Shown piece by piece: positions 13,224-62,843 of a stretch of 64,000 bases of DNA (position 1 is its first letter; every line of letters begins with the position of its first letter). The stretch spans positions 320,726,001-320,790,000 of the forward strand of contig OZ024743.1 of the NCBI GenBank assembly GCA_964016885.1. The letters are read 5' to 3'. Under the pieces are notes generated by a model. It had not been told where the DNA came from, did not search any database, and worked only from the letters and a program-made list of their open reading frames with translations. The DNA comes from Eledone cirrhosa. Taxonomy: Eukaryota. The translations under genes were made by a program, and so were the position numbers.

Positions 13224-13299
13224 AATAGATAGATAGATAGATGGATAGATAGATAGATAGATTGATAGATGGGTAGATAGATAGATAGATAGATAGATA
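13224..13299. repeat. (GATA)n tract = 3' tail/target of Tx1 copy A; equivalents at 19147-19212, 25007-25126, 30178-30212
   Basis: Direct reading. Confidence 0.95.
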
Positions 13300-13538
13300 T
13301 ATTTCTTTATTAGCCACAGGGGCACAAAAGAAGGGGACAAATACAAAGGGGGAAGTTTACATACAATAAAAACGTGTAAAATGTTATCACAGATGGAATT
13401 TAAAAGTTAGTCGATTTTCCCCAATAGAGGGAGACAGTTTATATGGGTAACACAGACCCCCGAAAAAAATGTGCAACCCTCATCTCCAGGAGTACGAAGA
13501 GCTTGTACTCCTTTCCTCTCCTCCTCCTTTTCCTCAAC

Positions 13539-16500
13539 CTACAGGCTGATATAGAGAGAAGGCCCATTCACTCGGGCCATTCTCGCCACTTTCACCCACC
13601 TTTCATAAAACTTGCTGGGGTACAGCACCTCTCTCTCCATCCTGATTCTTCTTCCAAAGTGGTATTTGAAAAAAAGAATCAGTTGTTGGCCGGAGAGAAA
13701 GGTGTCTGACCTCAGCCCTTTCAACCTTGTCCACCATACAACCTCTTTCGCCATAGCTATCACACAAAGGAAAACCGCCTCTCCTTCGTTTTTGAAGGAG
13801 GGTGGCGGTTTGATCATGACAATGGACTCGGTGGTCAACTGGATTGGTCCCACCCGCGACAATAGTCGTTCCACATAGCCCCACAGGTCAGTGACGCCCG
13901 GGCAGTGTATGAATGCGTGCGCGACGGTTTCTTCGTCTCGCACGCACCTCGGACAGATCTTTTTTGCAGGGTCCCTGCCCGGGCGCCCATGTCTGTAGAG
14001 CTTGTCTCGAACTGGTAGAGCTCCTCGGTAGCACTGCCAGGCCAGGGACTTTTGGAAGTTGTCCATCGGTCCCGGGCGGAAGGTCCTACCGAACAGACTG
14101 GCCAGTTCATCTTCCTCCACGCCTAGAGTTTCACCGAGCGCGTCGTCGCACTTGCTGCGGACCAACCCTCTATAGAATGACGAAGTGGAGTCTCCACTGA
14201 TCGCCGGGTCCGCCTGCCAGAGGGCTGTGAGCGCCTGAGCACATTCGATGTGCCAGTCGCCCATTTTCCTCGGTCTCTGCTTGACCCAGGACTGCAGCTC
14301 GGTCAGCGAGACGAGTCGTGGGAAGGCTCGCCTCACGAACGGGGCCCACACCGGTTGTCCGGTGAGGAATACGTAGAGATGCCGCAGCCTGAGCGCGTGT
14401 TTGCGCATCGTCAACCACGGCATCCCCAGCCCTCCGTTAGAAGGGTGTTGGCAGCAGATGGATCTTCTTACCAAAGGAGCCCGCCTCTTCCAAAGGAATC
14501 GGAAGAGGGCGCGCTCCATTTTGGCGAGCGTTTTGGCTGGACAAGGCACGACGGTCAAGCGGTAGTAGATGGCGGACGCTATAAAAGTGTTCGCCACCTC
14601 CGCTCGACCTTTCAAGGATAGTTTGCACTCGGCCCACTTCTGGGTGAGTGCAAACACCTTGGCCGTCACTTCGTTCCAGTTCTTCTCCACCTGGAGGTCC
14701 GGACCAAACCAGACCCCGAGCAGCTTTACCGGTCCTTCCGTCCAGCGTCCGACGACGCCATCGGAAGGCATCGGTCTGCCTCTCCACGATCCGAGTTGCA
14801 AACCGATGGACTTGTCCCGGTTCAGCTTCGCTCCTGTGAGACTTTCGTATTCCTTTAGTAAGGTGCCGACTTCCTCGATTTGCGAGGCGCTCGACACCAT
14901 TACTGTCACGTCGTCGGCGTAGGCCGACGCCGCTTTCCGCAGTCCCGGTTCCAGAGGGATGCCCTGCAATAGCTCCAGCTTCCGCAGTAGTGGCTCGAGA
15001 GTCAGTACGTACAGAAGGGAGGAGAGAGGGCATCCCTGTCGAATGGATCGCGTAATATGGAACGGCTCCGAGAGGTAACCGTTCACCTTGACCCTTGAGC
15101 AGATGTTGCTGTTGTGCATTGCAGCAATCCAGCCCCTGAACACGGGTCCGAAGCCTGCCGCCTCGAGCACCGCATCCAGGTAACGATGGTCAACCCTATC
15201 GAAAGCCTTAGACTGATCCAAGTTGATCAGGGCCCCACCGAAGCCGGGTTTACACCCTACCCTCTCTATGATGTATCGCATGAGGTGGAGGTTGTCGTGT
15301 ATGGACCTGGTCGGGATCGCGCATGTCTGCGCTTCTCCCACCAGGTTCTCGACGACAAGCGCCAGCCTCTTTGCCAACACCTTGGCCAAAATCTGTAACT
15401 CTGTGTTTAGCAGAATTATGGGCCGGAAGTTGCCTATGTCATCCCCCTTATTCTCGTCCTTCCTGATTAGTGTGACCACGCCCCCGGTTACAGAATTGGG
15501 AATTCTCCCGTTCTGTTGCCAGTTGCAGTAGACCGCTTCCAGGAGACCGGAGAATAAGTCCGGCATTGCTACGTAAAATTCGTAGGGTAGACCGTCGAGA
15601 CCTGGAGATTTGCGTTTGCCGCATTGGCTCAGCGCGTCCCCTATCTCAGTGGCTGAAATCGGCTTTTCGCAGAACTTCGCCTCGCTGTCCGAGAGTCGCG
15701 GTAGGCCGTCGAGGTATGGACCGAAATCCATAGCCTCTCCCGGCGCGCCGCTCCCCCCGAACAGCCGAGCAAAGTGCCGCTGAAAAGCCGCACACATCTG
15801 CTTCGGCTCACGTATCACGCGTCCGTTTTGGTCCTTCAAAGACCGAATCGTGGACTTGTTGCCACTTTCTGCCTCCGTCACTCGGGCCCAGCTAACAGCT
15901 TTGGCTCCCTCGTTTCCCAGAGCACGTATTTTGCTTCTGACAACGCAGCCCTCGTGCTTTGCGTCGAAGAACTGGTCCAAGGCCGTTCTCGTTGCTAGCA
16001 CGCTGGCTACGTTGCCACTTCTAATAGCCTCTTCTACTTTATCTACCAGTTCCTTCTCGGTTCTATTTCTATCTAACGCTAATTCTTTACTAAAAACTAT
16101 CGAGTCTAATCTAACTGCCCTCTTGAGAGAGTACCACCATCTGTTGTTGACAATGGCCCCTGTCAAGTGCTGTTTAACTAAAGTGCTAATCCGTCTACTG
16201 TAGGCTTTGCTTGTCGGTAACGACAAGTTCAGCTTCCAGTAGCCGGGTCCTTGTCTATGGGTTCTATCAAGGTTGGCCATGCAGGTCACTAGTTTGTGAT
16301 CTGAATAGGCAACCATGAACATTTGTGGACAGCTTAACATGTCCCTATCCTTATTTCTAACTAGAACCCTATCTAGGTACGATCTAGATGTTCCGCTACG
16401 ATTACTCCACGTCCACAGTGGCGCAGTCGGAAAATCTAGTCGATATCTATCGGCCAGGTCAAATCGGTCGATTAACTGTTTGAGGCTGTTACACCCCCCT

Positions 16501-16976
16501 TTATCGGGACATGCTCCCACATAGTCCCAACGTGCATCTAGGATTCCATTCCAGTCCCCCACTAAAAGCAAGGAGCGGGACGTTACTAGAAAAGTCTCTA
16601 GACGTTTGAAGAAGTCTGGCCGCGGTGTCCCGGATGGGGCATATGCGGCCACCAGCCTGAACGCTCCACCTTCACTACCGTCAACGTCTAGGACCACCAG
16701 TCGACCCTCCGGGTCCAGATGTACCGTCTGTGTTACGAGGCCCAGGTGTTTCCGCAGCAAAACGGCAACTCCGCCCCCACCCCCCGGTTGACAGAGAGAT
16801 GCGTAGATCTCAAAGTCATCGAAGATGGGGGCCAGCTGTCGCTCGCCGTGGATCCTGGACTCGCAAATGGCTACCACATCCAAACTGTGCGACCTGAGGT
16901 CGTTTAAGAGTTTGCCCTGTTTCCAGGGCATCCCCAGGCCGCGTACGTTCACACATCCAACTCTTATATTGGCCAT
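13539..16976 (-). CDS. ORF2: APE endonuclease, reverse transcriptase and C-terminal CCHC finger (1145 aa)
   Basis: NVRGL, GDWN, YLDR, SDH; KSPGLDG, RPI.LLN, LDQSKAFDRV, RQGCPLS, YADD; CPRC..ET..H...HC. Confidence 0.97.
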   Translation of the reverse strand: MANIRVGCVNVRGLGMPWKQGKLLNDLRSHSLDVVAICESRIHGERQLAPIFDDFEIYASLCQPGGGGGVAVLLRKHLGLVTQTVHLDPEGRLVVLDVDGSEGGAFRLVAAYAPSGTPRPDFFKRLETFLVTSRSLLLVGDWNGILDARWDYVGACPDKGGCNSLKQLIDRFDLADRYRLDFPTAPLWTWSNRSGTSRSYLDRVLVRNKDRDMLSCPQMFMVAYSDHKLVTCMANLDRTHRQGPGYWKLNLSLPTSKAYSRRISTLVKQHLTGAIVNNRWWYSLKRAVRLDSIVFSKELALDRNRTEKELVDKVEEAIRSGNVASVLATRTALDQFFDAKHEGCVVRSKIRALGNEGAKAVSWARVTEAESGNKSTIRSLKDQNGRVIREPKQMCAAFQRHFARLFGGSGAPGEAMDFGPYLDGLPRLSDSEAKFCEKPISATEIGDALSQCGKRKSPGLDGLPYEFYVAMPDLFSGLLEAVYCNWQQNGRIPNSVTGGVVTLIRKDENKGDDIGNFRPIILLNTELQILAKVLAKRLALVVENLVGEAQTCAIPTRSIHDNLHLMRYIIERVGCKPGFGGALINLDQSKAFDRVDHRYLDAVLEAAGFGPVFRGWIAAMHNSNICSRVKVNGYLSEPFHITRSIRQGCPLSSLLYVLTLEPLLRKLELLQGIPLEPGLRKAASAYADDVTVMVSSASQIEEVGTLLKEYESLTGAKLNRDKSIGLQLGSWRGRPMPSDGVVGRWTEGPVKLLGVWFGPDLQVEKNWNEVTAKVFALTQKWAECKLSLKGRAEVANTFIASAIYYRLTVVPCPAKTLAKMERALFRFLWKRRAPLVRRSICCQHPSNGGLGMPWLTMRKHALRLRHLYVFLTGQPVWAPFVRRAFPRLVSLTELQSWVKQRPRKMGDWHIECAQALTALWQADPAISGDSTSSFYRGLVRSKCDDALGETLGVEEDELASLFGRTFRPGPMDNFQKSLAWQCYRGALPVRDKLYRHGRPGRDPAKKICPRCVRDEETVAHAFIHCPGVTDLWGYVERLLSRVGPIQLTTESIVMIKPPPSFKNEGEAVFLCVIAMAKEVVWWTRLKGLRSDTFLSGQQLILFFKYHFGRRIRMEREVLYPSKFYERWVKVARMARVNGPSLYISL

Positions 16977-17009
16977 GTTGGTGCTGAAAAGTTAAAAGAG
17001 GAAAAGACA

Positions 17010-18926
17010 TCACTCACCCTTCGCCTCCTGGGGACCAGGCCGCACGATTTCCATGGGGGTGTTGGAGGGGTTGTCTGGATGGGTGGTGGTTTCCGGCGGG
17101 GTGGGGACGCAGATGTTTGGTGGGGTGGGGTCTGGTGGAATGGGGGTGTCTGGGGTGGGGAGGCATTTGAGAAGGACGCGGTTGAGTGGTTTCACGCAGG
17201 AATTCCCCACATCCTTCTCAAATGTTTCTTTTAGGGACCTATAAGTTTGTATAGGGACCCTAATCAGTTTTAGGTTCATTTTTTTGCTATTTTTTATAGA
17301 GTGGGCGAAAGTTTTCCCTTCGGTGAAAACCGAAGGGTCGTTCGTAATGGTCTCCATTAGTGTTTTGTTTTCAGTGTTTATGTAAGTGTAAGTGTAATTT
17401 TCTTGTGTTGTGTTTGTTTTTGTCTGTAGTTCTTGTGTGTGCTTTCGTTTTGTTGTAGGTATTTTGTTTTCAGGAGGTGGGGGTTTTGTTTGTGATATTT
17501 TTGTTGTTTGTGTTGGTGGTTGTATGTTTGTGGTAGTGTTTGCTGGTTTTTTGCTTTTGTGATGTCTTTTCTTTCTTTTCGAGCGATGGGGTTCTCCCTC
17601 GTCTTCACTGGGTGATGGCGAGATAGCCTCATCTGTTGTATCGTCTGTGTGATTGGGGAGGGGTATGTCTTGGGGAGCTGTTGTGTCTGTATGTGATTTT
17701 GCAGTGGTTTTAGGTGGAGTGAGGTTGGGTGGGACTGTGTTTGTTGTGGTTATTTTTGTGTGTTGGTGTTGTTGTTGTAGTGGTGGTGTTGGTGGTTGTG
17801 TTGTTTTGATGGGTGTTGGCAGAAGAGCCTTTTTTTGGTTCATTAGTTTAGGACAGGAAGCCCTCAGGTGACCCCTGCTAAAGCAATGGTAACATGAAGG
17901 CCGCCTACCCTCAACCGAAAGGTTTATGTAGGTAAGTCCGTCCAGGAGTACACGCTGTGGGATCATAGCTATTCGCTCTGGGCTCATTTGCACCAGAACT
18001 TCAATGCTAGTCCCATTGAATACATCTCTGGGGGACTTGCCTACTGACAGTATTCTGTCTTCATCAAAATTGATGAAGCCGCACAGTATCCACCATATGT
18101 TCACCTTTGGTGTGACACTTGTGATTCTGATCTTTTGTGTCCTTTTTCCCATGTATGTAGGGAAAAAGGTGTACAGGTTGGATACAATTGGCGACACAGA
18201 GTAATTTTGGGCCGTCAATTGATCCTTCATCAGTACCGAAATACTCCTAAAAAGTTTGCTTCTTTGAATGAATGCAATATCATTCATTGAATCTTTGAAA
18301 ACCAGTTCAATATCTTTCTGTGACAATTGGACTGGTTTTCGGGTAGAATTGGAAACTGTCCTAAAAACTATCGTTTTGAGAGCAGTTTCCTTGCGAATTT
18401 CTACCGGAGAATTGATGCTGAAAGCACCATTTTTTTCGAAGGTGACATATCTCTTAGCGTCCTTTAAAAGGTGTTCAGCATTTGTTATGTCGAGATATAT
18501 CAATTGTTCTTTCTTTTGAACTTTCTCCGCAAAGGAGATTTTTGGTTTCTTTGTGGAATCCGTATTGGTGGTGTTGTCATTATTGTTGTTATTCTTGTTG
18601 TTATTCTTGTTGTCACCGATGTTGGTATCATCCGTATTTTCCTTGGTGTTGTTGTTGTCTTTGATGCTGGTGTTATTGGCGTTGTCTTTATTTTTTTCTT
18701 TGTTGTTGTTATCATTGTTGCTTTTATCATCATTATTGGTTTTGCTGTTATTTTTGTTGTCATTGAGCTGTTTGGTGTCATTTGTGTTGTTTGGATGTGA
18801 ATTCGTTTTTTTATTTTCATTTTGTCTTTCCATCTCTATAGTATCTAGTGAAGAAGACGTTGTTGACTGCGAGCTTTGTAGTCTTACCGCCTCTCCACCA
18901 CCATTATCGTTGGACGCAGCGTTCAT
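17010..18926 (-). CDS. ORF1: gag-like nucleic-acid-binding protein (638 aa)
   Basis: N-rich N-terminus, putative RRM-like region, CCHC knuckle CYHCFSRGHLRASC, P/T-rich linker, conserved C-terminal block. Confidence 0.9.
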   Translation of the reverse strand: MNAASNDNGGGEAVRLQSSQSTTSSSLDTIEMERQNENKKTNSHPNNTNDTKQLNDNKNNSKTNNDDKSNNDNNNKEKNKDNANNTSIKDNNNTKENTDDTNIGDNKNNNKNNNNNDNTTNTDSTKKPKISFAEKVQKKEQLIYLDITNAEHLLKDAKRYVTFEKNGAFSINSPVEIRKETALKTIVFRTVSNSTRKPVQLSQKDIELVFKDSMNDIAFIQRSKLFRSISVLMKDQLTAQNYSVSPIVSNLYTFFPTYMGKRTQKIRITSVTPKVNIWWILCGFINFDEDRILSVGKSPRDVFNGTSIEVLVQMSPERIAMIPQRVLLDGLTYINLSVEGRRPSCYHCFSRGHLRASCPKLMNQKKALLPTPIKTTQPPTPPLQQQHQHTKITTTNTVPPNLTPPKTTAKSHTDTTAPQDIPLPNHTDDTTDEAISPSPSEDEGEPHRSKRKKRHHKSKKPANTTTNIQPPTQTTKISQTKPPPPENKIPTTKRKHTQELQTKTNTTQENYTYTYINTENKTLMETITNDPSVFTEGKTFAHSIKNSKKMNLKLIRVPIQTYRSLKETFEKDVGNSCVKPLNRVLLKCLPTPDTPIPPDPTPPNICVPTPPETTTHPDNPSNTPMEIVRPGPQEAKGE

Positions 18927-22200: not shown

Positions 22201-25006
22201 TTAACATCCTTATTTCTAACTAGAACCCTATCTAGATACGATCTAGATGTTCCGCTACGATTACTCCACGTCCACAGTGGCGCAGTCGGGAAATCTAGTC
22301 GATATCTATCGGCCAGGTCAAATCGGTCGATTAACTGTTTGAGGCTGTTACACCCCCCTTTATCGGGACATGCTCCCACATAGTCCCAACGTGCATCTAG
22401 GATTCCATTCTAGCCCCCCACTAAAAGCAAGGAGCGGGACGTTCCCAGAAAAGTCTCTAGACGTTTGAAGAAGTCTGGCCGCGGTGTCCCGGATGGGGCA
22501 TATGCGGCCACCAGCCTGAAGGTTCCACCTTCACTACCGTCAACGTCTAGGACCACCAGTCGACCCTCTGGGTCCAGATGTACCGTCTGTGTTACGAGGC
22601 CCAGGTGTTTCAGAAGCAAAACGGCAATTCCGCCCCCACCCCCCGGTTGACAGAGAGATGCGTAGATCTCAAAGTCATCGAAGATGGGGGCCAGATGTCG
22701 CTCGCTGTGGATCCTGGACTCGCAAATGGCTACCACATCCATACTGTGCGACCTGAGGTCGTTTAAGAGTTTGCCCTGTTTCCAGGGCATCCCCAGGCCG
22801 CGTACGTTCACACATCCAACTCTTATATTAGCCATGTTGGTGCTGAAAAGTTAAAAGAGGAAAAGAGATCACTCACCCTTCGTCTCCTGGGGACCGGGCC
22901 GCACGATTTCCATGGGGGTGTTGGAGGGGTTGTCTGGATGGGTGGTGGTTTCCGGCGGGGTGGGGACGGATATGTTTGGTGGGGTGGGGTCTGGTGGAAT
23001 GGGTGTGTCTGGGGTGGGGAGACATTTGAGAAGGACGCGGTTGAGTGGTTTCACGCAGGAATTCCACACATCCTTCTCAAATGTTTCTTTTAGGGACCTA
23101 CAAGTTTGTATAGGGACCCTAATCAGTTTTAGGTTCAGTTTTTTGCTATTTTTAATAGAGTGGGCGAAAGTTTTCCCTTCGGTTTTCACCGAAGGGTCGT
23201 TCGTGATAGTCTCCATTAGTGTTTTGTTTTCAGTGTTTATGTCAGTGTAAGTGTAATTTTCTTGTGTTGTGTTTGTTTTTGTCTGTAGTTCTTGTGTGTG
23301 CTTTCGTTTTGTTGTAGGTATTTTGTTTTCAGGAGGTGAGGGTTTTGTTTGTGATGTTTTTGTTGTTTGTGTTGGTGGTTGTATGTTTGTGGTAGTGTTT
23401 GCTGGTTTTTTGCTTTTGTGATGTCTTTTCTTTCTTTTCGAGCGATGGGGTTCTCCCTCGTCTTCACTGGGTGATGGCGAGATAGCCTCATCTGTTGTAT
23501 CGTCTGTGTGATTGGAGAGGGTTATGTCTTGGGGAGCTGTTGTGTCTGTATGTGATTTTGCAGTGGTTTTAGGTGGAGTGGGGTTGGGTGGGACTGTGTT
23601 TGTTGTGGTTATTTTTGTGTGTTGGTGTTGTTGTTGTGGTGGTGGTGTTGGTGGTTGTGTTGTTTTGATGGGTGTCGGCAGAAGAGCCTTTATTTTATTC
23701 ATTAATTTAGGACAGGAAGCCCTCAGGTGACCCCTGCTAAAGCAATGGTAACATGAAGGCCGCCTACCCTCAACCGAAAAGTTTATGTAGGTGAGTCCGT
23801 CCAGGAGTACACGTTGTGGGATCATAGCTATTCGCTCTGGGCTCATTTGCACCAGAACTTCAATGCTAGTCCCATTGAATACATCTCTGGGGGACTTTCC
23901 TACTGACAGTATTCTGTCTTCATCAACATTGATGAAGCCGCACAGTATCCACCATATGTTTACCTTTGGTGTGACACTCGTGATTCTGATCTTTTGTGTC
24001 CTTTTTCCCATGTATGTAGGGAAAAAGGTGTACAGGTTGGATACAATTGGCGACACAGAGCAATTTTGGGCCGTCAATTGATCCTTCATGAGTACCGAAA
24101 TACTCCCAAAAAATGTGCTTCTTTGAATGAATGCAATATCATTCATTGAATTTTTGAAAACCATTTCAATTTCTTTCTGTGGCAATTGGACTGCTTTTCG
24201 GGTAGAATTGGAAACTGTCCTAAAAACTATCGTTTTGAGAGCAGTTTCCTTGCGAATTTCTACCGGAGAGTTGATGCTGAAAGCACCATTTTTTTCGAAA
24301 GTGACATATCTCCTAGCGTCCTTTAAAAGTTGTTCAGCATTTGTTATGTCGCGATATATCAATTCTTCCTTTTTTTAACTTTCTCTGCAAAGGAGATGTT
24401 GGTGTCTATGTGGAATCCGTATTGTTGGTGTTGTCATTATTGTTGTTATTCTTGTTGTTATTCTTGTTGTCACCGATGTTGGTATTATTCGTATTTTCCT
24501 TGGTGTTTTTGTTGTCTTTGATGCTGGTGTTATTGGTGTTGTCTTTATTTTTTTCTTTGTTGTTTTTATCATTGTTGCTTTTATCATCATTATTGGTGTT
24601 GCTGTTATTTTTGTTGTCATTGATTTGTTTGGTGTCATTTGTGTTGTTTGGATATGAATTCGTTTTTACATTTTCATTTCGTCTTTCCATCTCTATAGTA
24701 TCTAGTGAAGAAGATGTTGTTGACTGCGAGCTTTGTATTCTTACCACCTCTCCAACACCATTATTGTTGGATGCAGCGTTCATAACGTAATCAAAATTTT
24801 ACAATATTTGTTCCAAGATTCGATGGAGAAATATTTTTTTTCAAATGGATATTCCGCCCCTATAGGGGCAAACATGAGTTGACTCACCACCTGAAGGTCC
24901 AGAAGGGGGGTCAATTTACACAATGATATCAAATTTAACTAAAAACTCACGTTTTTTTCTTACATAAATTAACGGAAACTTCTCCGCGAAGTTACACACG
25001 TCTGAT
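19213..25006 (-). mobile_element. Full-length frameshifted Tx1 copy B, very similar to A
   Basis: Collinear with A; several frameshifts; deletion near 20816 removes the YADD motif. Confidence 0.95.
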
Positions 25007-28100: not shown

Positions 28101-29704
28101 TTCCAGTAACCGGGTCCCTGTCTATGGGTTCTATCAAGGTTGAGTATGCAAGTTACTAATTTGTGATCCGAATAGCCAACCATGAGCATCTTTAGACAGC
28201 TTAAAATTATCCTTATTTCTAACTAGGACCCTATCTAGGTACGACCTAGATGATCCGCTGCAGTTTGCCCAAGTCAAGGTTGGCGCAGTCGGGAATATTT
28301 TTAGGAGGACCCGGTTAATGGGTCCGACGCAGGGCGGGGGGCACGTCCTCTTTAAAATTGTCCTTTAAAGCTTTGTATATGTCCTCTGGGACTTTTATCA
28401 TTTTGAGGTGGGGGGAATCCCCTGCCTGGGTGAAGTTAGGCCCTTCGGTTTTTACCAAATTGTTATTATAAATAATGTTCAACAGTTTTTTGTTTCTTGT
28501 GTTTATGTATGTGTATGCATATTTTTGTTTTTGTGTGGTGTATTTTGTTTGCTGTTGTTGTGTGTTCTTTTGTGTTGATGTCTGTGTTATATTTTGAGGA
28601 GGGATTGTTTTTATTTGTGTGTCTGAGGTATGTTTTCTTTTCATTCCTTTAACCTTTTGGAAATGCTCCCCCTCGTCTGACGACGAATGCGGATCGTCTT
28701 CCGTGTTGGAGGGTGGGGTAAATTTTCGGGTAGTGTTTGTGGTGCGGATGTTTTGGAAATTGTTTTTTTGAGTGCGTGTGTGTGGGGGGAAGGGGGTGGA
28801 CAGTGTTTTGTTTTGTGTTAACTTGTGGTTGTTGTTTTTGTAGTGGTCGTGGTGGTGATTGTGTTGGTTGTGTAGTTGTTGGTGGTGTGGGCAGAATTGG
28901 AGTTTTCTTTTTAAGTTGAGGACAGACAGCCTTCAGGTGACCTCTGGTTCCACAGATGTAACACGAGGGCCGCCTACCCTCAACGGTAATGTTTATAAAA
29001 GTTCGGTCATCCAGTATGACGCGTTCGGGCATCTGGGCGATCCTTTTGGGCCTCATTTGAACTAAAAGTTCGAGGCCCGTTCCACTGAACGCGTCACCCG
29101 ATGCCTTTCCCATGGATATTAATATGTCATCGTTCAGGTCAAGAAAACCTGTCAACACCCACCATATGTCCATAGTTGGAAGAATTGTGTGTATTTTTAT
29201 TTTCTGTGACCTTCTACCCATGTACGTAGGGTAGAAGGTGTATGCGGTGGATGTAATAGGTTTACCGAAAATTTTTTGACGTGTCCTGATCCTTCATGAG
29301 AATGGATAGACTCCCATAGAGTCTATCCTTTTGTATGAACAGAATGTCTTACATTACATCTTTTAAGACCAGCTCTATCTCACGATGTGATGGTTGAGCT
29401 GGTTTTTTCGTTTTATTTAACACTGTTCTAAACATCACTGTGTTTAGGAGTCTCTGACTTTTTAGTTCCGGGTGTGGGGGGGGGGTCGAAAATGAACCAT
29501 TTTCCCCGTATACTATGTATTTTTTGGCTTCTGCAGTAGCTCCTTAGCGTTGCTTATGTCTACTGGCAGGTATTCAAGGGTTGTTTTCGCAGTTTGGGCA
29601 AAGGAAATCTTTTCCTTGTTCGTGGAGTTGTTCGTGTTGCTGTTGTTGTTGGTGGTGTTGTTGTTATCATTGTTGCTGTTGCTCTTGTTCTTTTTGTTGT
29701 CATT

Positions 29705-33200: not shown

Positions 33201-33661
33201 CCATAGTGTGCGACCTGAGATCGTTTAAGAGTTTGCCCTGTTTCCAGGACATCCCCAGGCCGCGTACGTTCACACATCCAACTCTTATGTTGGCCATGTT
33301 GGTGCTGAAAAGTTAAAAGAAGAGGAAAGAAATCACTCACTTCTTCGTCTCCTGGAGACCAGGCTGCACGATTTCCATGGGGGTGTTGGAGGGGTTGTCT
33401 GGGTGGGTGGTGGTTTCCGGCGGGGTGAGGACAGAGATGTTTCGTGGGGGGGGGGGGTCTGGTGGGATAGGGGTGTCTGGGGGGGGGGTCTGAGGTGGGG
33501 AGACATTTGAGAAGGACGCGGTTAAGTGGTTTAATGCAAGAATTCCCCACATCCTTTTCAAATGTTTCTTTTAGGGACCTATAAGTTTGTATAGGGACCC
33601 TAATCAGTTTTAGGTTCAGTTTTTTGTTATTTTTAATAGAGTGGGTGAAAGTTTTCCCTTC
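30213..33661 (-). mobile_element. Tx1 copy D, 5'-truncated with internal deletions
   Basis: 3' UTR nearly identical to A; RT deletion junction near 31690; begins within ORF1 3' part. Confidence 0.92.
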
Positions 33662-55623: not shown

Positions 55624-55837
55624 TGAACTTTTTTTGTTTAATATAAGGAACTGTTTCATTGTTTTATTCATTATTTTTTTAATATTTTATATATATATAT
55701 ATTAATTTATCTATTAAAATAACAGATTAAAGTTTAAGCATAGAATCGCTGCTTTCACCCTTAACGGGATCTTCTGTTAAGGGTAAAAGCAGAAATTCTT
55801 TGCTTAAACTTTAACCTGTTATTTTATTAAAAAAAAC

Positions 55838-57024
55838 TCACATCAGACGTGGGCAGAAATATGGAACCGTGGACGTGTTCTTTGAAACACCACAGGAGAC
55901 CAGAGAGACTCCATGGCCTCATTAAGAAGTGACGACTTCACACTCGTCTCAAGCTATTGTGGCCAGAGACTCGTGAAGATCAGGGTGACCCACATTCCAC
56001 CGACCATCGAAATTCCCTGGCACCAAGATAATCGAAATAGCGAAAGAAAAGCAGGAGAACTGGTCCGGATCTGGGATGGAGCTCCTGATCCAAGCAGACC
56101 AAAAAGAGGAGATACCAGAGGTAATAGACTTCACTGACGGCAGCCACCTCACCGTAATCGTCGAGGGTAGAAGGCCTAGGTATGTTGTTTGTGGTGAAGG
56201 AACCCACCTAAGGGCTTTCTGCCCTCAGGCTAAAAGGTTGAGGCCACCTCTCTTACCCACACCAGTGACTCAACCATCAACAGCACCAGTAGCAGAAATG
56301 GCAGCAACAACTATAGCAGCAACAACAGAAGCAACTGTAACGGCAACAACTCCAGCAACACTAGCAAAACCACCACCACCACCCAACGCGCCAGAACTAG
56401 CACCAGCGCCTACACCATCTACCACGCCACAACCAAAACCAACGCCTGTGGAGGATTTTTCACTCCCCGACCTATCGCAACTGGAGATAGATTGTGACAA
56501 GAGGAGTGGGAAACGGTATCTGGAAAAAAGAAAAAAAAGAAAAAGAAAGCAAAAATGAAAAAAATCCTCTTCCTTCCCCCTCTAAAAACAAAATACAGAG
56601 GGAAAAAAATAAACTATCAAACAAAAAAGTTAGGACAGCTATGCCACCATCGACACCAGCATCACCAACCCCATCACCACAGACACCAACACCATCACCA
56701 TCATTAACCCCAACACCACCATCACCAACACCACAAAAGTCACCAAAAAGCGAAACAGAAACAAACCCACAACAAACGCAAACAAAACAAAACAACCAAA
56801 ACGATAAACACTACACAGCATTAAATTTGAACAACAAGCAATTATTACACTACATCCAACACAACACCAGCATCACAGAAAAAGACTACACAACAACCCC
56901 AAAATTCACACCACCTCCACACATACAAATCACTCGCATCACACAGAAAACGTACATGACACTAAAACAAAAATTCCCCAAAGACATCGGAGACTTCCGA
57001 CAAGCACTCTCCAGGAGGATTTAT
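55838..57024 (+). mobile_element. ORF1-only fragment of the (TTA)n-tail Tx1 subfamily
   Basis: Highly similar to 57908-59080; retains the knuckle region VEGRRPRYVVCGEGTHLRAFC. Confidence 0.9.
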
Positions 57025-60000
57025 ATTTGGCGACCTACGTAGTAAATCGTATCATCGCGAGCTCTGCAAAGGTTTGTTATTTCCGTTTGTTAAAAATTGT
57101 CATTTATGGAAAATTTTATTGTTAACTGTTTATAAGCACACATACATTGTTTTCCGAAAAGGACACACAAAAAGATTGGGGCCTTGTGCCCAAAATTTTA
57201 ACTTTTATTATTATCATAAAATTTCTTTGAAAAAAAATGGCTAATTCACCTCTGCACGAAGCAGCTGAAAGCCTTCCTCACAAAATAACACCTCACATCG
57301 ACACCACCATTGTAAATGTTACTACGTTTGCCAACACAAAAAAAAAATATAAGCAGTAGCAATATTTTAAATTTGTCTCAGGCAGACATTCATTTCCCGC
57401 CATTACCAATGACTGCAGGTGTTAAAGCCTCCACCACCACCACCACCGCGACAACCACCACCCCCACCACCACCGCGACAACAGAAACAAAAGAAGAAAA
57501 AAATAAATTAACTCGTGATGTCGAAATGAAATCAAGCAAAATGGACTCTTCCGCACCAAAGACGACTGACGTCACCACCACCACAACTGAAACTAAAATT
57601 AATATTAACACAAATAACGATAGCAACAACAACAACAATGACATTATAAAACCGACCCTCAGTTTCGCCATAGTAGCAAAACAGTTCGAAGCATTCACGG
57701 TAACTCAGGAGGATTTAGAAAATGCCAAACAAATGCTAAAGAAAGATGGGTACAGGGTCCCCCCCCCCACACACACACCTAATAAAATGGAGCATTGGCG
57801 CCTATGCACCGTGTCGTATAGAACAATAAATGTAAAATCGCGCCGAGTGGAACGGGCATCCGAGTCCCAAATCCAAAAAGCTTTGGGACATATGTGGGCA
57901 TGAAAAACCCACATCAGACGTGGGCAAAAGTATGGAACCGTGGATGTGTTCTTTGAAACACCAGAGGAGGCTAGAGAACACTCCATGGCCCCATTAAAAA
58001 GTGACGACTTCACACTCGTCCCAAGCTATTGTGGCCAGAGACTCGTAAAGATCAGGGTGACCCACGTTCCACCGGCCATCGAAATTCCCTGGCTAATAGC
58101 GGCTGTCCTCGCTGGCATCGAAGCCAACACGAAAATAATAGCAATAGCAAAAGAAAAGCAGGAAAACTGGTCCGGATCTGGGATGGAGCTCCTGATCCAA
58201 GCGGACCAAAAAAGCATTGAGGAGATCCCAGAGGTAATAGACCTCACTGACGGCAGCCACCTCACGCTAAAAGGTTGAGGCCACCTCTCCTAACCACCCC
58301 AGTGACACAACCATCAACACCACCAGAAGCAGAGATGGCAGCAACAACTGTAGCAGCAACAACAGAAGCAACTATAACAGCAACAACCCCAGCAACAGTA
58401 GCAAAACCAACACCACTACCACCACCAGCAAAACCGACACCACCACCACCCAACGCTTCAGAACTAGCACCAGCGCCTACACCATCCACCACACCACAAC
58501 CAAAACTAACGCCTGTGGAGGATTTTCCACTCCCCGGCCTATCACAACTGGAGACAGATTGTGACGACGAGGAGTGGGAAACGATATCCGGAAAAAAAAA
58601 AGAAACCAAAAAAGAAAAAATTCTCTTCCTTCCCCCTCCAAAAACAAAATACATAGGGAAACAAATAAATTAAGAAACAAGAAAGTTAGGACAGATATGC
58701 CACCATCCACACCAGCATCACCAACCCCATCAACCCAAACACCAACACCATCACTATCATTAACCCCAGCACCACCATCACCTACACAACAAAAGTCACC
58801 AAAATGCGAAACAGAAACAAACCCACAACAAACGCAAACAAAACAAAACAACCAAAACGATACACACTACACAGCATTAAATTTGAACAACAACCAATTA
58901 TTACACTACATCCAACACAACACCAGCATCACAGAAAAAGACTACACAACAACCCCAAAATTCACACCACCTCCACACATACAAATCACTCGCATCACAC
59001 AGAAAACGTACATGACACTAAAACAAAAATTCCCCAAACACATCGGAGACTTCCGACAAGCACTCTCCAGGAGGATTTATAAGGACATCCTTCCTGAGGA
59101 GGCCACAAGCAGTGAAAAGGATGGAAAAGCCGTCCTTCCCCTACGAGAAGTAAGGTAAGTGGTCTTTCCCATCTTTTCCACTCCTTTTCAACATGACCTC
59201 ACTCAGAATAGGCAGCATAAATGCGCGTGGCTTGGGGTCGTCATGGAAGCAGGGCCACCTGCTCAACGACCTCAGGTCACTAAACATAGATGTAGTGGCC
59301 ATCAGCGAGACCAAAATCTCCGAAGCACAGGCTTTCGCACCGATCTTCGGCGGCTACGATGTGTAGGCATCTCCCAGCCGTCCGGGATCGGGGGGAGGAG
59401 TTGCTGTGCTTTTTCGGAGAGGTTTGGATCTTGCCATACGGGCCATCTTCCTGGACCCAGAAGGTAAGTTGGTGGTGCTGGACGTGACCAGCGGAGACGG
59501 GCAAGCTTTCAGGTTAGTGGCCGTCTATGCCCCGACAGGAGCAGGGCGGCCTTATTTCTTCCGGCGTCTGGAGACCTTTCTTGGAACGTCCCGCTCTTTA
59601 GAGTTAGTGGGCGACTGGAACGGGATCTTAGATGCACGCTGGGATTGTGTGGGATTAGTGGATAGGGAAGGAGGGTGCAAGAGTCTCACCAACCTGCTCA
59701 GACGTTTTGAACTGTCTGACAGGTACCGAATGGATTTCCCGAATGTACCAATGTGGACTTGGACAAATCGCATAGGGTCATCCAGATCATATCTAGATAG
59801 AGTATTTTGTAGGGAAATAGATAGGTCTAGCATAGGCTGTCCACAATTCAAGATAGTCAGCTACACGGACCACAAATTCGTGATCTGTGTGCTTGACTTA
59901 GATAGGCTTCATAGACGAGGACCCGGCTACTGGAAGCTAAACGCGTCCTTACCAGCGCGCAAGGCCTACAGAGACCGGATTAGCGAACTAGTTAAGCGGG

Positions 60001-62843
60001 CGTTGACGGGGGCCATCGTCAACAACAAGTGGTGGTTTGCTCTGAAAAGAGCAATTAGAATAGAGTCCATTAGGTTTAGTAAGACTTTAGCAATAGAGAA
60101 AAATAGAGCAGAGGGAGAATTAGTTAAAAAATTAGATGAGGCGCTTAGCAAAGGCATCGCGACCGACGTACTTGCGGCGAAATTGGCCCTTGACCAATTC
60201 TTCAATGCAAAGCACGAAGGCTGCGTTGTCAGAGCTAGGGTGCGTGCTCTCAGACACGAGGGGACGAAAGCCGTTCAATGGGTTCGAGTGGCGGAGGCGC
60301 GTCGTGGCAACAAAGCCACGATCCGGTCTTTGGTGGACCACGACGGGCGCATGCTACTCGATCCCGGGCAAATGTGTGAAGCTTTTCAGCGACACTTCGC
60401 TCAACTGTTCGGGGGCAGTGGCGGGCCGGATCGAGGGATGGACTTTAGTGTCTACCTCGACGGACTGCCGCGGCTTTCGGCCACTGAGGCGGAGTGTTGC
60501 GAAAAGCCGATAACAACCGCTGAAGTACGGGATGCAATGACTAGTTGCACAAGGGGTAAATCGCCTGGTTTGGATGGTCTGCCCTATGAACTTTACGTAC
60601 AAATGCCAAACTTGTTCGGAGGCCTCTTGGCGGACGTCTACTGCAACTGGCAACAGAACGGGAGAATTCCCAGCTCTGTGAGCCGAGGAGCGGTGGCGCT
60701 GCTGAGAAAGGATCCGAACAAGGGGGATAACATAGATAATTTTAGGCCCATAACTCTGCTAAACACAGAGTTCAAGATTTTGGCCAAGGTGCTAGCAAAG
60801 AGGTTGGCGCTTGTCGTTGGTGGTCTGGTAGGAGAGGCACAGACATGCGCCATTCCCGACAGATCCATCCACGACAACCTCCACCTCATGCGATACATCG
60901 TAGAGAGGGTAGCTAGGGAACCTGGCACGGGTGGGTCTTTGATCAATTTAGATCAGTCGAAAGCCTTCGATAGGGTCGACCATCGTTACCTAACGGCAGT
61001 CCTGAGGGCGGCTGGCTTTGGGCCCGTCTTCAGAGGCTGGATCGCTGCCATGCACAGCGACATCTGCTCTGTAGTGAGAGTGAACGGTCACCTTTCGGAA
61101 CCGTTCAACATCATGCGCTCTGTCCGCCAAGGATGTCCCCTCTCGTCCCTAATGTACGTATTGACTCTCGAGCCATTACTGCACAAACTGGAGACGTTGA
61201 GGGGGGTCCCGTGCGAACTAGGATGCGGAAGATCCGTGTCAGCATATGCCGACGATGTCACCGTAGTGGTGTCGAACGCCAAACACATCGAGGCGATCGG
61301 CACTACACTAAGAGAATACGAAGCGGTGACAGGAGCAATGATCAACCAGGAAAAGTCAGTGGGCCTGCAGCTCGGCACCTGGAGAGGCAGGTCCATGCCG
61401 TCCAACAGCGTCGTCGGGCGCTGGACGGACGGACCGGTTAAATTGCTAGGGGTCTGGTTCGGTCCAGACCTCCAGACGGACAAAAACTGGGACGAGGTGA
61501 CGAGCAGGGTGGCCTCTCTCACCCAGAAATGGGCCGAGAGGAAGCTATCCCTGAAAGGTCGAGCGGGGGTGGCGAATGCGTACATCGCATCCGTCATCTA
61601 CTACCGCCTGACCGTCGTACCTTGTTCTAAGCCCCGCCTGACTGCGCTGGATCGTTTGCTCTTTCGCTTCTTGTGGAAGGGACGTGCTCCGATGGTCAGG
61701 CGGTCCATCTGCTGTCAACACCCGCTACGTGGAGGGCTGGGCATGCCGTGGCTGATGATGCGCAGACACGCGCTCAGGCTACGACATCTCCACCTCTTCC
61801 TCGACGGTGATCAGGTGTGGTCGCCGTTTGCAAGACACTTTTTCCCCAGCTCGTCTCCTTGACGGAGCTGCAGTCCTGGGTCAAGCGAAGACCGAGAGGG
61901 AGCGCTTGGAGACTGGAATGTCTTCAGGCGCTCACAGCCCTCGACCAATCGGGCAATGTGATCGGTGGAAACTCCACCTTGGCGTTCTATAGGGGATTAG
62001 TGGAGGGGAAGAGCGACGACGTACTTGGAGAAACTCTAGGCGTCGACGAAAATCAACTAGCCAATCTCTTCGGAAGGACTTTCGGGCCGGGGCCTATGGA
62101 GAACTTCCAGAAATCCCTGGCCTGGCAGTGCTACCGAGGAGCTTTGCCAGTTCGGGATAAACTCTACAGGCATGGAGGTGCCGTCAGCCGGGCATGTCCG
62201 AGATGCGCGCAGGGCGACGAAACCGTCCTGCACGCACTCGTCCAGTGTCCGAGCATTGCTGACTTGTGGGTTTATGTCGAACACCTGCTGTCACGTGTAG
62301 GACGGATCCAGCTATCAGCTGAGTCCATCGTGAGGATTGCCCCGCCTCCTTCCTTTAGCCTGGAAGGGCAGGCAGTTTTTATCTGTCTGGTGGCCATGGC
62401 GGAAGAGATAGTATGGTGGACACGTTTGAAAGGGCTGAAGACGAGCACTTACCTCTTCGGTGATGCCCTGATTAACTTTTTCAAATTTCATTTGAAAAGG
62501 AAAATCAGGGTAGAGAGGGAAGTGCTCTCTTCCCAGCATTTTGTTGAAAGATGGGTGAGAGAAGCAAGTATGGCCCGAATGAATGGGCCTTCTCTGAGTA
62601 TGTGTCTGTAAATTAAAGGTGGAAAACTGGGAGAGGGCACTTGCCCTGGTGGTCAGGGCCACTGTGGTCTTTTAATGGGCTTTCTCCACAAATGTCCCTT
62701 GGAAGTCTCCCCCCTATTGGGGAATTTTTCTTTGTTATTTTATTTCAACCTCTGTTTTTTTTTACCCATTTGTACCGTCCTGTATTGTCCTGTACTGTCC
62801 TTAATGTCTACTTTATGTGAACCCTTGTGGTTAATAAAGAAAA

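Follow-up and report, generated by a model that had tools for sequence, protein, structure and literature searches.

Kibi and Koshi, microsatellite-targeting elements of the L1/Tx1 group, carry two open reading frames (ORFs) separated by a short spacer, an ORF2 that encodes an APE endonuclease, a reverse transcriptase (RT) and a C-terminal zinc finger, and simple-repeat tails and flanks (PMC4494074). The long interspersed nuclear elements (LINEs) analysed here share this design. They lie in a stretch of 64,000 nucleotides (nt) from Eledone cirrhosa (assembly GCA_964016885.1, contig OZ024743.1, positions 320,726,001 to 320,790,000), referred to as a whole as the window, and they carry a splice-donor motif on the stop codon of ORF1, a feature that brings further systems into the comparison. 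Human spliced L1 copies, termed SpIREs, are spliced RNAs that became fixed by retrotransposition and are recognised by their donor/acceptor joins; about 1.8% of full-length human L1 insertions stem from one spliced form (PMC5860796). In the plant Ty1/copia element EVD, the source of the shGAG RNA, a conserved donor stands at the end of the structural gene, where U1 both directs splicing and protects the full-length RNA by blocking premature termination (PMC5580714). A 5' splice-site motif kept unspliced within a mature RNA hampers 3' processing and inhibits export (PMC4380460).

In the elements of the window the donor motif is conserved across lineages, it is the exact point at which hybrid families change from one element to another, and it is predicted to be covered by a helix between the inter-ORF spacer and the start of the 3' untranslated region (3'UTR). 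The evidence for each of these statements is given below, after which the explanations that could account for them are weighed.

The donor motif on the ORF1 stop

Several LINEs stand in tandem on the minus strand of the window, beginning with element A (19140-13225) and continuing with B, C and D, and a further element, E, lies on the plus strand. At the end of ORF1 element A reads AGG/GTGAGTGA (17020-17010; here and below a slash marks the exon end), which includes the ORF1 stop codon and is followed by a pyrimidine tract, a CAG and CACCAACATG, with the ATG of ORF2 at 16976. A preliminary description of this DNA had drawn attention to this succession of donor, stop, tract, CAG and ATG in A and B, and its coordinates proved correct, as did its readings of D (GAA/GTGAGT, 33340-33305, 36 nt, in frame) and of the donor in E (AAG/GTAAGT, 59152-59160). 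Element D belongs to an older A-like subfamily, here called the old-A type, with its donor in phase 2; its sister copies read GAG/GTGAGT where D itself has GAA/GTGAGT. A and E belong to young and abundant families, for which 40 of 40 scored matches were approximately 100% identical and the candidates numbered 1,535 and 346, respectively.

For a wider comparison the genome, 3.0 Gb in all, was searched with a degenerate pattern for the start of ORF2. This gave 11,546 matches, and another 312 when an AG in an arginine codon was not required. Eighty loci were hand-picked for diversity (60 plus 20, from the first 100 listed for each pattern) and, together with A and E, provided a set of 82 copies. 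A strict G/GTRRGT motif was present no more than 65 nt upstream of the ORF2 ATG in 69 of these copies, compared with 117 of 6,724 other 65-nt windows (1.7%) from the same loci. Three of the 13 copies without a strict donor lacked an ORF1 end, and the rest carried single changes or variant donors. When the copies were sorted into 20 lineage groups, donor columns -2 to +6 held one letter in 15 to 20 of the groups, compared with 6 to 16 for the 28 columns upstream; since the site had been located by a loose GT pattern, the GT itself does not serve as a test of conservation. Scored against a U1 consensus, the donor was the best or tied-best match in 8 of 9 elements, each of which contained 225 to 308 GT sites, and in A it was tied for best among 256. 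It falls mostly in phase 2 of ORF1 and in phase 1 in four lineage groups. We consider the motif likely to be a U1/spliceosome site in working order.

Downstream of the donor, ORF2 begins with an ATG of its own behind a conserved CCAAC in 20 of 20 groups (the search required the ATG and left the CCAAC free). Termination followed by re-initiation is the mode of ORF2 translation in L1, and since ORF2 keeps its own start codon in this setting, the same mode may apply to the present elements. Contigs of a related organism show the donor variants GTAAGT, GTAGGT, GTGAGT and GTGTGT. In the five contig sets examined, the joints had no GT-AG skip at this junction, a result with no bearing on splicing. 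More distant relatives, at approximately 40% identity, are known as proteins that start at the matching methionine; a metagenome scan for the corresponding DNA loci found none, and the donor was checked in the present genome and the one related organism. Donor-like motifs were also seen at other positions. One of them, AAC/GTGAGT, lies approximately 50 nt from the 5' end of A (19093-19085, minus strand) in the arm of a small hairpin, similar 5'-end motifs were seen by eye in copies L071, L087, L092 and L102, and the E and MAVLRIGS lineages (the latter represented by L099) have a second strong match, AAG/GTAAGT, 271 nt into ORF2.

Hybrid families and a predicted spacer-3'UTR helix

Genomic copies were found in which two elements are joined at the donor. 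Three junction types, designated H1, H2 and H3, stop exactly at the donor exon end and continue immediately behind a CAG that lies within the terminal part of ORF1 in a different element, and all of the hybrids retain the donor, spacer and ORF2 of the second element. In H1, with 18 matches, an old-A ORF1 end is joined to the MAMLR lineage 23 nt upstream of that lineage's donor; the upstream part is 84-89% like old-A types, the ORF2 is 93-96% like that of MAMLR, and the parents are present in unspliced form, namely the right parent itself and near relatives of the left one. H2, with 2,459 matches, is joined 42-43 nt upstream of the E donor, and the junction was found in 30 of 30 copies inspected. 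Its parent family (72 matches) has an intact GTAAGT in 11 of 12 copies inspected and an ORF2 of its own that is 84-85% like that of H2 in the four copies checked. The parental ORF1 end is 83-92% like that of H2 in 10 of 11 copies and 51-60% like that of E, and the ORF2 of H2 is 96% like that of E. In H3, found in 3 of 30 copies inspected, an old-A end is joined 76 nt upstream of the E donor point. A scan of 187 unselected ORF2 starts gave a comparable picture: both types of out-of-register join between families ended at the donor, and nine single out-of-register joins within families were scattered, none of them following an AG. For the MAMLR-type exon end, no hybrid was present among 6 candidates. 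Because the joins in the hybrid families coincide exactly with the donor, it is likely that this donor has been spliced to neighbouring copies, and read-through of tandem arrays combined with splicing would be the simplest cause of the hybrids.

Some other irregular copies were noted. Element A and the old-A copies L094 and L095 have ORF2 starts that are 94-97% alike and ORF1s that are 63% alike from 100-300 nt upstream of the donor; with the drop lying away from the donor, ORF1 was either exchanged there by another route or diverged. Copy L080 combines a MAVLRVGC-type 5' part with an E-type ORF2 end and 3'UTR and is a recombinant or nested copy. In element C, at window position 28295 (minus strand), ORF1 is joined directly to approximately residue 187 of ORF2; this join is off the donor and resembles a deletion.

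The spacer that follows the donor is complementary to the purine-rich start of the 3'UTR. The junction of A, folded against a segment comprising the ORF2 stop and 60 nt beyond it, gave -60.3 kcal/mol, compared with -27.4 +/- 4.2 for shuffled sequences. The helix z-score against dinucleotide shuffles was -2.2 to -6.2 in 16 of 16 lineage groups, the set being defined by exclusion of two copies in which the donor or the stop was missing. When partners were exchanged between lineages, the own partner paired better than the swapped one in 119 of 120 lineage pairs, and none of 100,000 permutations matched this. The sense strand paired better than the antisense strand in 15 of 16 groups, and 80 of 638 pairs were G-U. 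In all 40 copies listed, 5 to 8 of the 9 donor bases were paired. By these folds a long-range helix, of which it would form one strand, accounts for the pyrimidine tract better than a role in splicing does, and the complete RNA is predicted to form such a helix and thereby hide the donor. Next to the helix, the CCAACA before the ORF2 start (16981-16976, minus strand) can pair with UGUAGG at the ORF2 stop (13544-13538) in 15-16 of 16 groups, a pairing that would bring the start and stop codons of ORF2 next to each other. The 3'UTR strand in A (13510-13488, minus strand) can also form a local hairpin, which makes a two-state switch possible.

Weighing the explanations

The preliminary description had proposed that an intron of 34-52 nt runs from the donor to a nearby AG and fuses ORF1 with ORF2, and this proposal is not supported. 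Its frame calls for A and B (34 nt, out of frame) and for D were right; in A the donor is in phase 1 and the proposed acceptor in phase 2, and B is identical. The acceptor assigned to E was not: the AG at 59205-59206 is an arginine codon four codons into ORF2 and no counterpart of the AG in A, and the tract of E runs straight to the ATG of ORF2 (59193, MTSLRIG). The claim that the signals persist across subfamilies therefore stands for the donor and falls for the acceptor, as 4 of 20 lineage groups have an AG between donor and ATG in the majority of their copies. Taking the first downstream AG wherever it lies gives "introns" of 28-68 nt (127 nt in one copy), and these would break the frame in each of the four phase-1 groups, the young A family included. 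Length alone does not exclude so small an intron, since human introns of 37-65 nt exist (PMC4463651), and animal introns below approximately 30 nt are generally considered absent (PMC13644364). A fused spliced RNA would encode its own RT, so genomic copies that lack exactly the intron would be expected. Such copies numbered 0 of 571 of the A type, where 562 exon ends are followed by G and the 9 others are all point changes, and 0 of 2,517 of the E type (2,468 and 49, all 49 being point changes or small deletions), the E-type search covering acceptors whose exon begins with a letter other than G. None was found among the 30 inspected of 39 old-A candidates, the flanks of the A and old-A introns gave no genome match within 30 nt of each other, and the AG of A joined to any upstream exon ending in a purine gave a single match, a 4-nt deletion with no join. 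Trans-splicing to this AG was also considered and was set aside, an AG being absent from that place in most lineages. What speaks for the small intron is that the first downstream AG is usually in phase 2, hence in frame, in the phase-2 groups, and that old-A copies have a good tract and a CAG; set against an unconserved acceptor, a phase mismatch and the missing intron-less copies, which largely refute it at the DNA level, these leave it very improbable. The broader suggestion of the same description, that ORF2 expression is controlled through U1 and the spliceosome instead of by termination and re-initiation, keeps the conserved U1-like donor on its side and loses splicing to a nearby AG, and re-initiation still has a place beside it.

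The explanation that we prefer, and of which we are about half convinced, is that the donor is a real U1 site that is masked in the complete RNA and that occasionally splices tandem neighbours into families with a swapped ORF1. U1 would occupy the donor while the RNA is still being transcribed. After synthesis of the 3'UTR, 3.4 kilobases (kb) later, the helix would cover the donor together with the start and stop of ORF2. A full-length RNA with its donor covered would stay unspliced and could be finished and exported, and an RNA whose donor stays exposed would be retained, broken down or spliced, so that the arrangement would act as a check of completeness. ORF2 would be translated from its own AUG, probably by re-initiation once the ribosome on ORF1 has opened the helix. 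Upon read-through into the next copy of a tandem array, the donor might be spliced to a cryptic CAG that precedes the donor of that copy by 23-76 nt, and the product, which still has the second donor, spacer and ORF2, could retrotranspose and found a new family with a swapped ORF1.

Several observations weigh against this explanation. The lineage groups are related, so the counts for donor and helix are not independent. The 3'UTR site surpassed all other windows of the element in 15 of 19 copies, the stop having been mislocated in 1 of the 4 exceptions. In minimum-energy folds of the whole 3.85-kb stretch, the helix appeared in 3 of 7 elements (E, L086 and L099) and was missing in A, L127, L072 and L087, the donor of A folding onto its own spacer. 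RNAalifold recovered 11 basal pairs only, and the part at the donor was not among them. The lengths of the two strands covaried with a rho of 0.81 in 14 groups and of 0.49 (p 0.056) in all 16. With regard to the hybrids, the scan of 187 ORF2 starts overlooked three known H2 copies, the CAG used in H2 has a weak pyrimidine tract and H3 could be a plain duplication of 76 nt. The three joins share only a 2-nt AG microhomology, and template switching, the alternative route to such hybrids, could use it as well. ORF2 contains 0-1 poly(A) signal, and the depletion was not significant in 7 of 7 elements; there would be little for U1 to suppress, which weakens the part of the explanation that involves telescripting. 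Conservation, lineage-matched complementarity and the hybrid joins were observed in the DNA, and the RNA-level steps are extrapolated from these and from predicted folds.

The donor and the helix are equally part of a different reading, in which ORF2 is a regulated 3.4-kb intron that extends from the donor to the TAG of the ORF2 stop (CTGTAG/G), yields an ORF1-only message and has its splicing ratio set by the helix; we think this unlikely. It would suit the need of LINEs for much more ORF1p than ORF2p. In 16 of 17 groups ORF2 terminates with TAG, preceded by a stretch moderately rich in pyrimidines (12-17 of 24 nt), the helix covers both the donor and this TAG, and splicing there would bring back a stop codon no more than two codons on in 9 of 16 groups when the phase of the group itself is used, compared with 6 of 32 for the other phases, and in 4 of 4 phase-1 groups. 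The gag RNA of EVD offers a precedent (PMC5580714). On the other hand, 7 of 16 groups would obtain no early stop, the abundant E lineage ends ORF2 in TAA, and the TAG/G is also held by its pairing with the CCAACA upstream of the ORF2 start. Retrocopies joining ORF1 to the 3'UTR were absent among 8 A/old-A and 7 MAMLR-type candidates, and no GTG join was seen against 307 intact MADIR copies (one match uninspected); such RNAs would need mobilisation in trans, so that the absence of retrocopies is a weak argument. A combined form, in which the RT gene is a switchable intron, the helix chooses between ORF1-only and full-length RNA and the same donor swaps ORF1 between families, we regard as possible though doubtful.

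Should the helix instead be a switch for translation or reverse transcription, the look of a donor would be largely a by-product of an arginine codon followed by the stop and of a GT held by its pairing with the arm of the 3'UTR hairpin, and any splicing would be accidental. In the phase-2 groups positions +2 to +4 are the stop codon, invariably T-purine-purine, a conserved AC is the partner of +5/+6 in approximately 37 of the 40 copies listed, and the helix puts the ORF2 AUG beside the ORF2 stop and competes with the local 3'UTR hairpin, all of which would fit. This is nevertheless improbable: four phase-1 groups preserve the motif although it does not coincide with the stop there, some of these groups leave +2 to +4 unpaired, the AG at -2/-1 is kept in 18-19 of 20 groups, and an exposed donor is costly in an intronless RNA (PMC4380460), so that drift should have erased it. 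It is harder still to credit that donor and hybrids are inherited accidents without function. All lineages do share one ancestor, and by our own estimate a stop codon would fall in such a context by chance in approximately 1 of 250 cases; however, the donor persists in groups that share only 46-60% identity at their ORF2 starts, amid variable neighbouring columns, and the complementarity of spacer and 3'UTR is matched lineage by lineage.

The elements of the window and known systems

Positions of the features are collected in Table 1.

Table 1. Features of elements A, B, D and E in window coordinates
Feature	Position	Strand	Remarks
ORF1 of A	17010..18926	-	638 codons + stop; CCHC zinc knuckle seen on inspection; Pfam gave no match
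Donor motif AGG/GTGAGT of A	17012..17020	-	ORF1 phase 1; ORF1 stop TGA 17012-17010
Pyrimidine-rich inter-ORF spacer of A	16977..17009	-	predicted 5' helix strand
AG proposed as acceptor in A	16984..16985	-	confined to A-like lineages; no use found
ORF2 of A	13539..16976	-	own ATG; APE endonuclease, RT, zf-RVT; 1,145 amino acids
ORF2 stop (CTGTAG/G) and purine-rich 3'UTR start of A	13486..13545	-	predicted 3' helix strand; candidate distant acceptor
AATAAA (13311-13306) and (ATCT)n tail of A	13225..13311	-	
Same junction in tandem neighbour B	22835..22879	-	donor G at 22876
Junction of D	33298..33343	-	phase 2; donor G at 33340
CAG in ORF1 end of E, after which H2 resumes	59110..59112	+	putative cryptic acceptor
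Donor motif AAG/GTAAGT of E	59152..59160	+	phase 2; contains ORF1 stop TAA
Spacer and ORF2 ATG (59193) of E	59161..59195	+	no AG ahead of ATG
ORF2 stop and 3'UTR of E	62602..62645	+	pairs with 59154-59198 in fold of whole 3.85-kb stretch

ORF2 of A matches Pfam PF03372, PF00078 and PF13966, and the closest solved structure is human L1 ORF2p (E 4.6e-51), compared with 1.4e-21 for R2. With a separate upstream ORF1, a short spacer, an ORF2 start of its own and an ORF2 with APE, RT and C-terminal zinc finger, the elements of the window are LINEs of the L1/Tx1 group, where "Tx1" is the label of the preliminary description and the class assignment here comes from ORF2 domains and structural similarity. 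Inspection showed tandem arrays and, at element tails and flanks, (ATCT)n and (ATT)n repeats, which bear on a possible target preference for a defined repeat. At 55829-57025 (plus strand) a partial E-like ORF1 breaks off where the following E element begins with its 5' end. Copies of the MADIR lineage (L071, L072) are flanked by a satellite of approximately 70 nt, and those listed cluster near the ends of large contigs.

In the literature searched, which left most subscription journals and repeat-database reports outside its coverage, no LINE was found with a donor at the ORF1 stop, a spacer-3'UTR helix or ORF1 swapping by splicing. The findings bear on the balance of ORF1p and ORF2p, on how an intronless RNA is kept unspliced and on how LINEs gain new ORF1s, and they point to the spliceosome as a route for ORF1 swapping. 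If the combined form described above is true, the host spliceosome exchanges ORF1 between neighbouring LINE families and thereby founds active families of thousands of copies.

For L1/Tx1-group elements such as Kibi and Koshi, the literature searched gave no description of a donor at the end of ORF1 or of a spacer that is complementary to the 3'UTR, as in the present elements. SpIREs are deletions within one element that cripple further rounds of retrotransposition (PMC5860796), whereas the joins described here connect different elements and leave a full ORF1 and ORF2, and one hybrid product has been amplified to the 2,459 matches of H2. EVD is a long terminal repeat element with a proven intron and subgenomic RNA (PMC5580714), whereas the present donor, observed in genomic DNA, lacks an established conserved acceptor and has a predicted helix lying over it. 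Nuclear retention by a 5' splice site was demonstrated in human reporters (PMC4380460); in the present retrotransposons, the same liability would be countered by a helix that masks the donor in cis.

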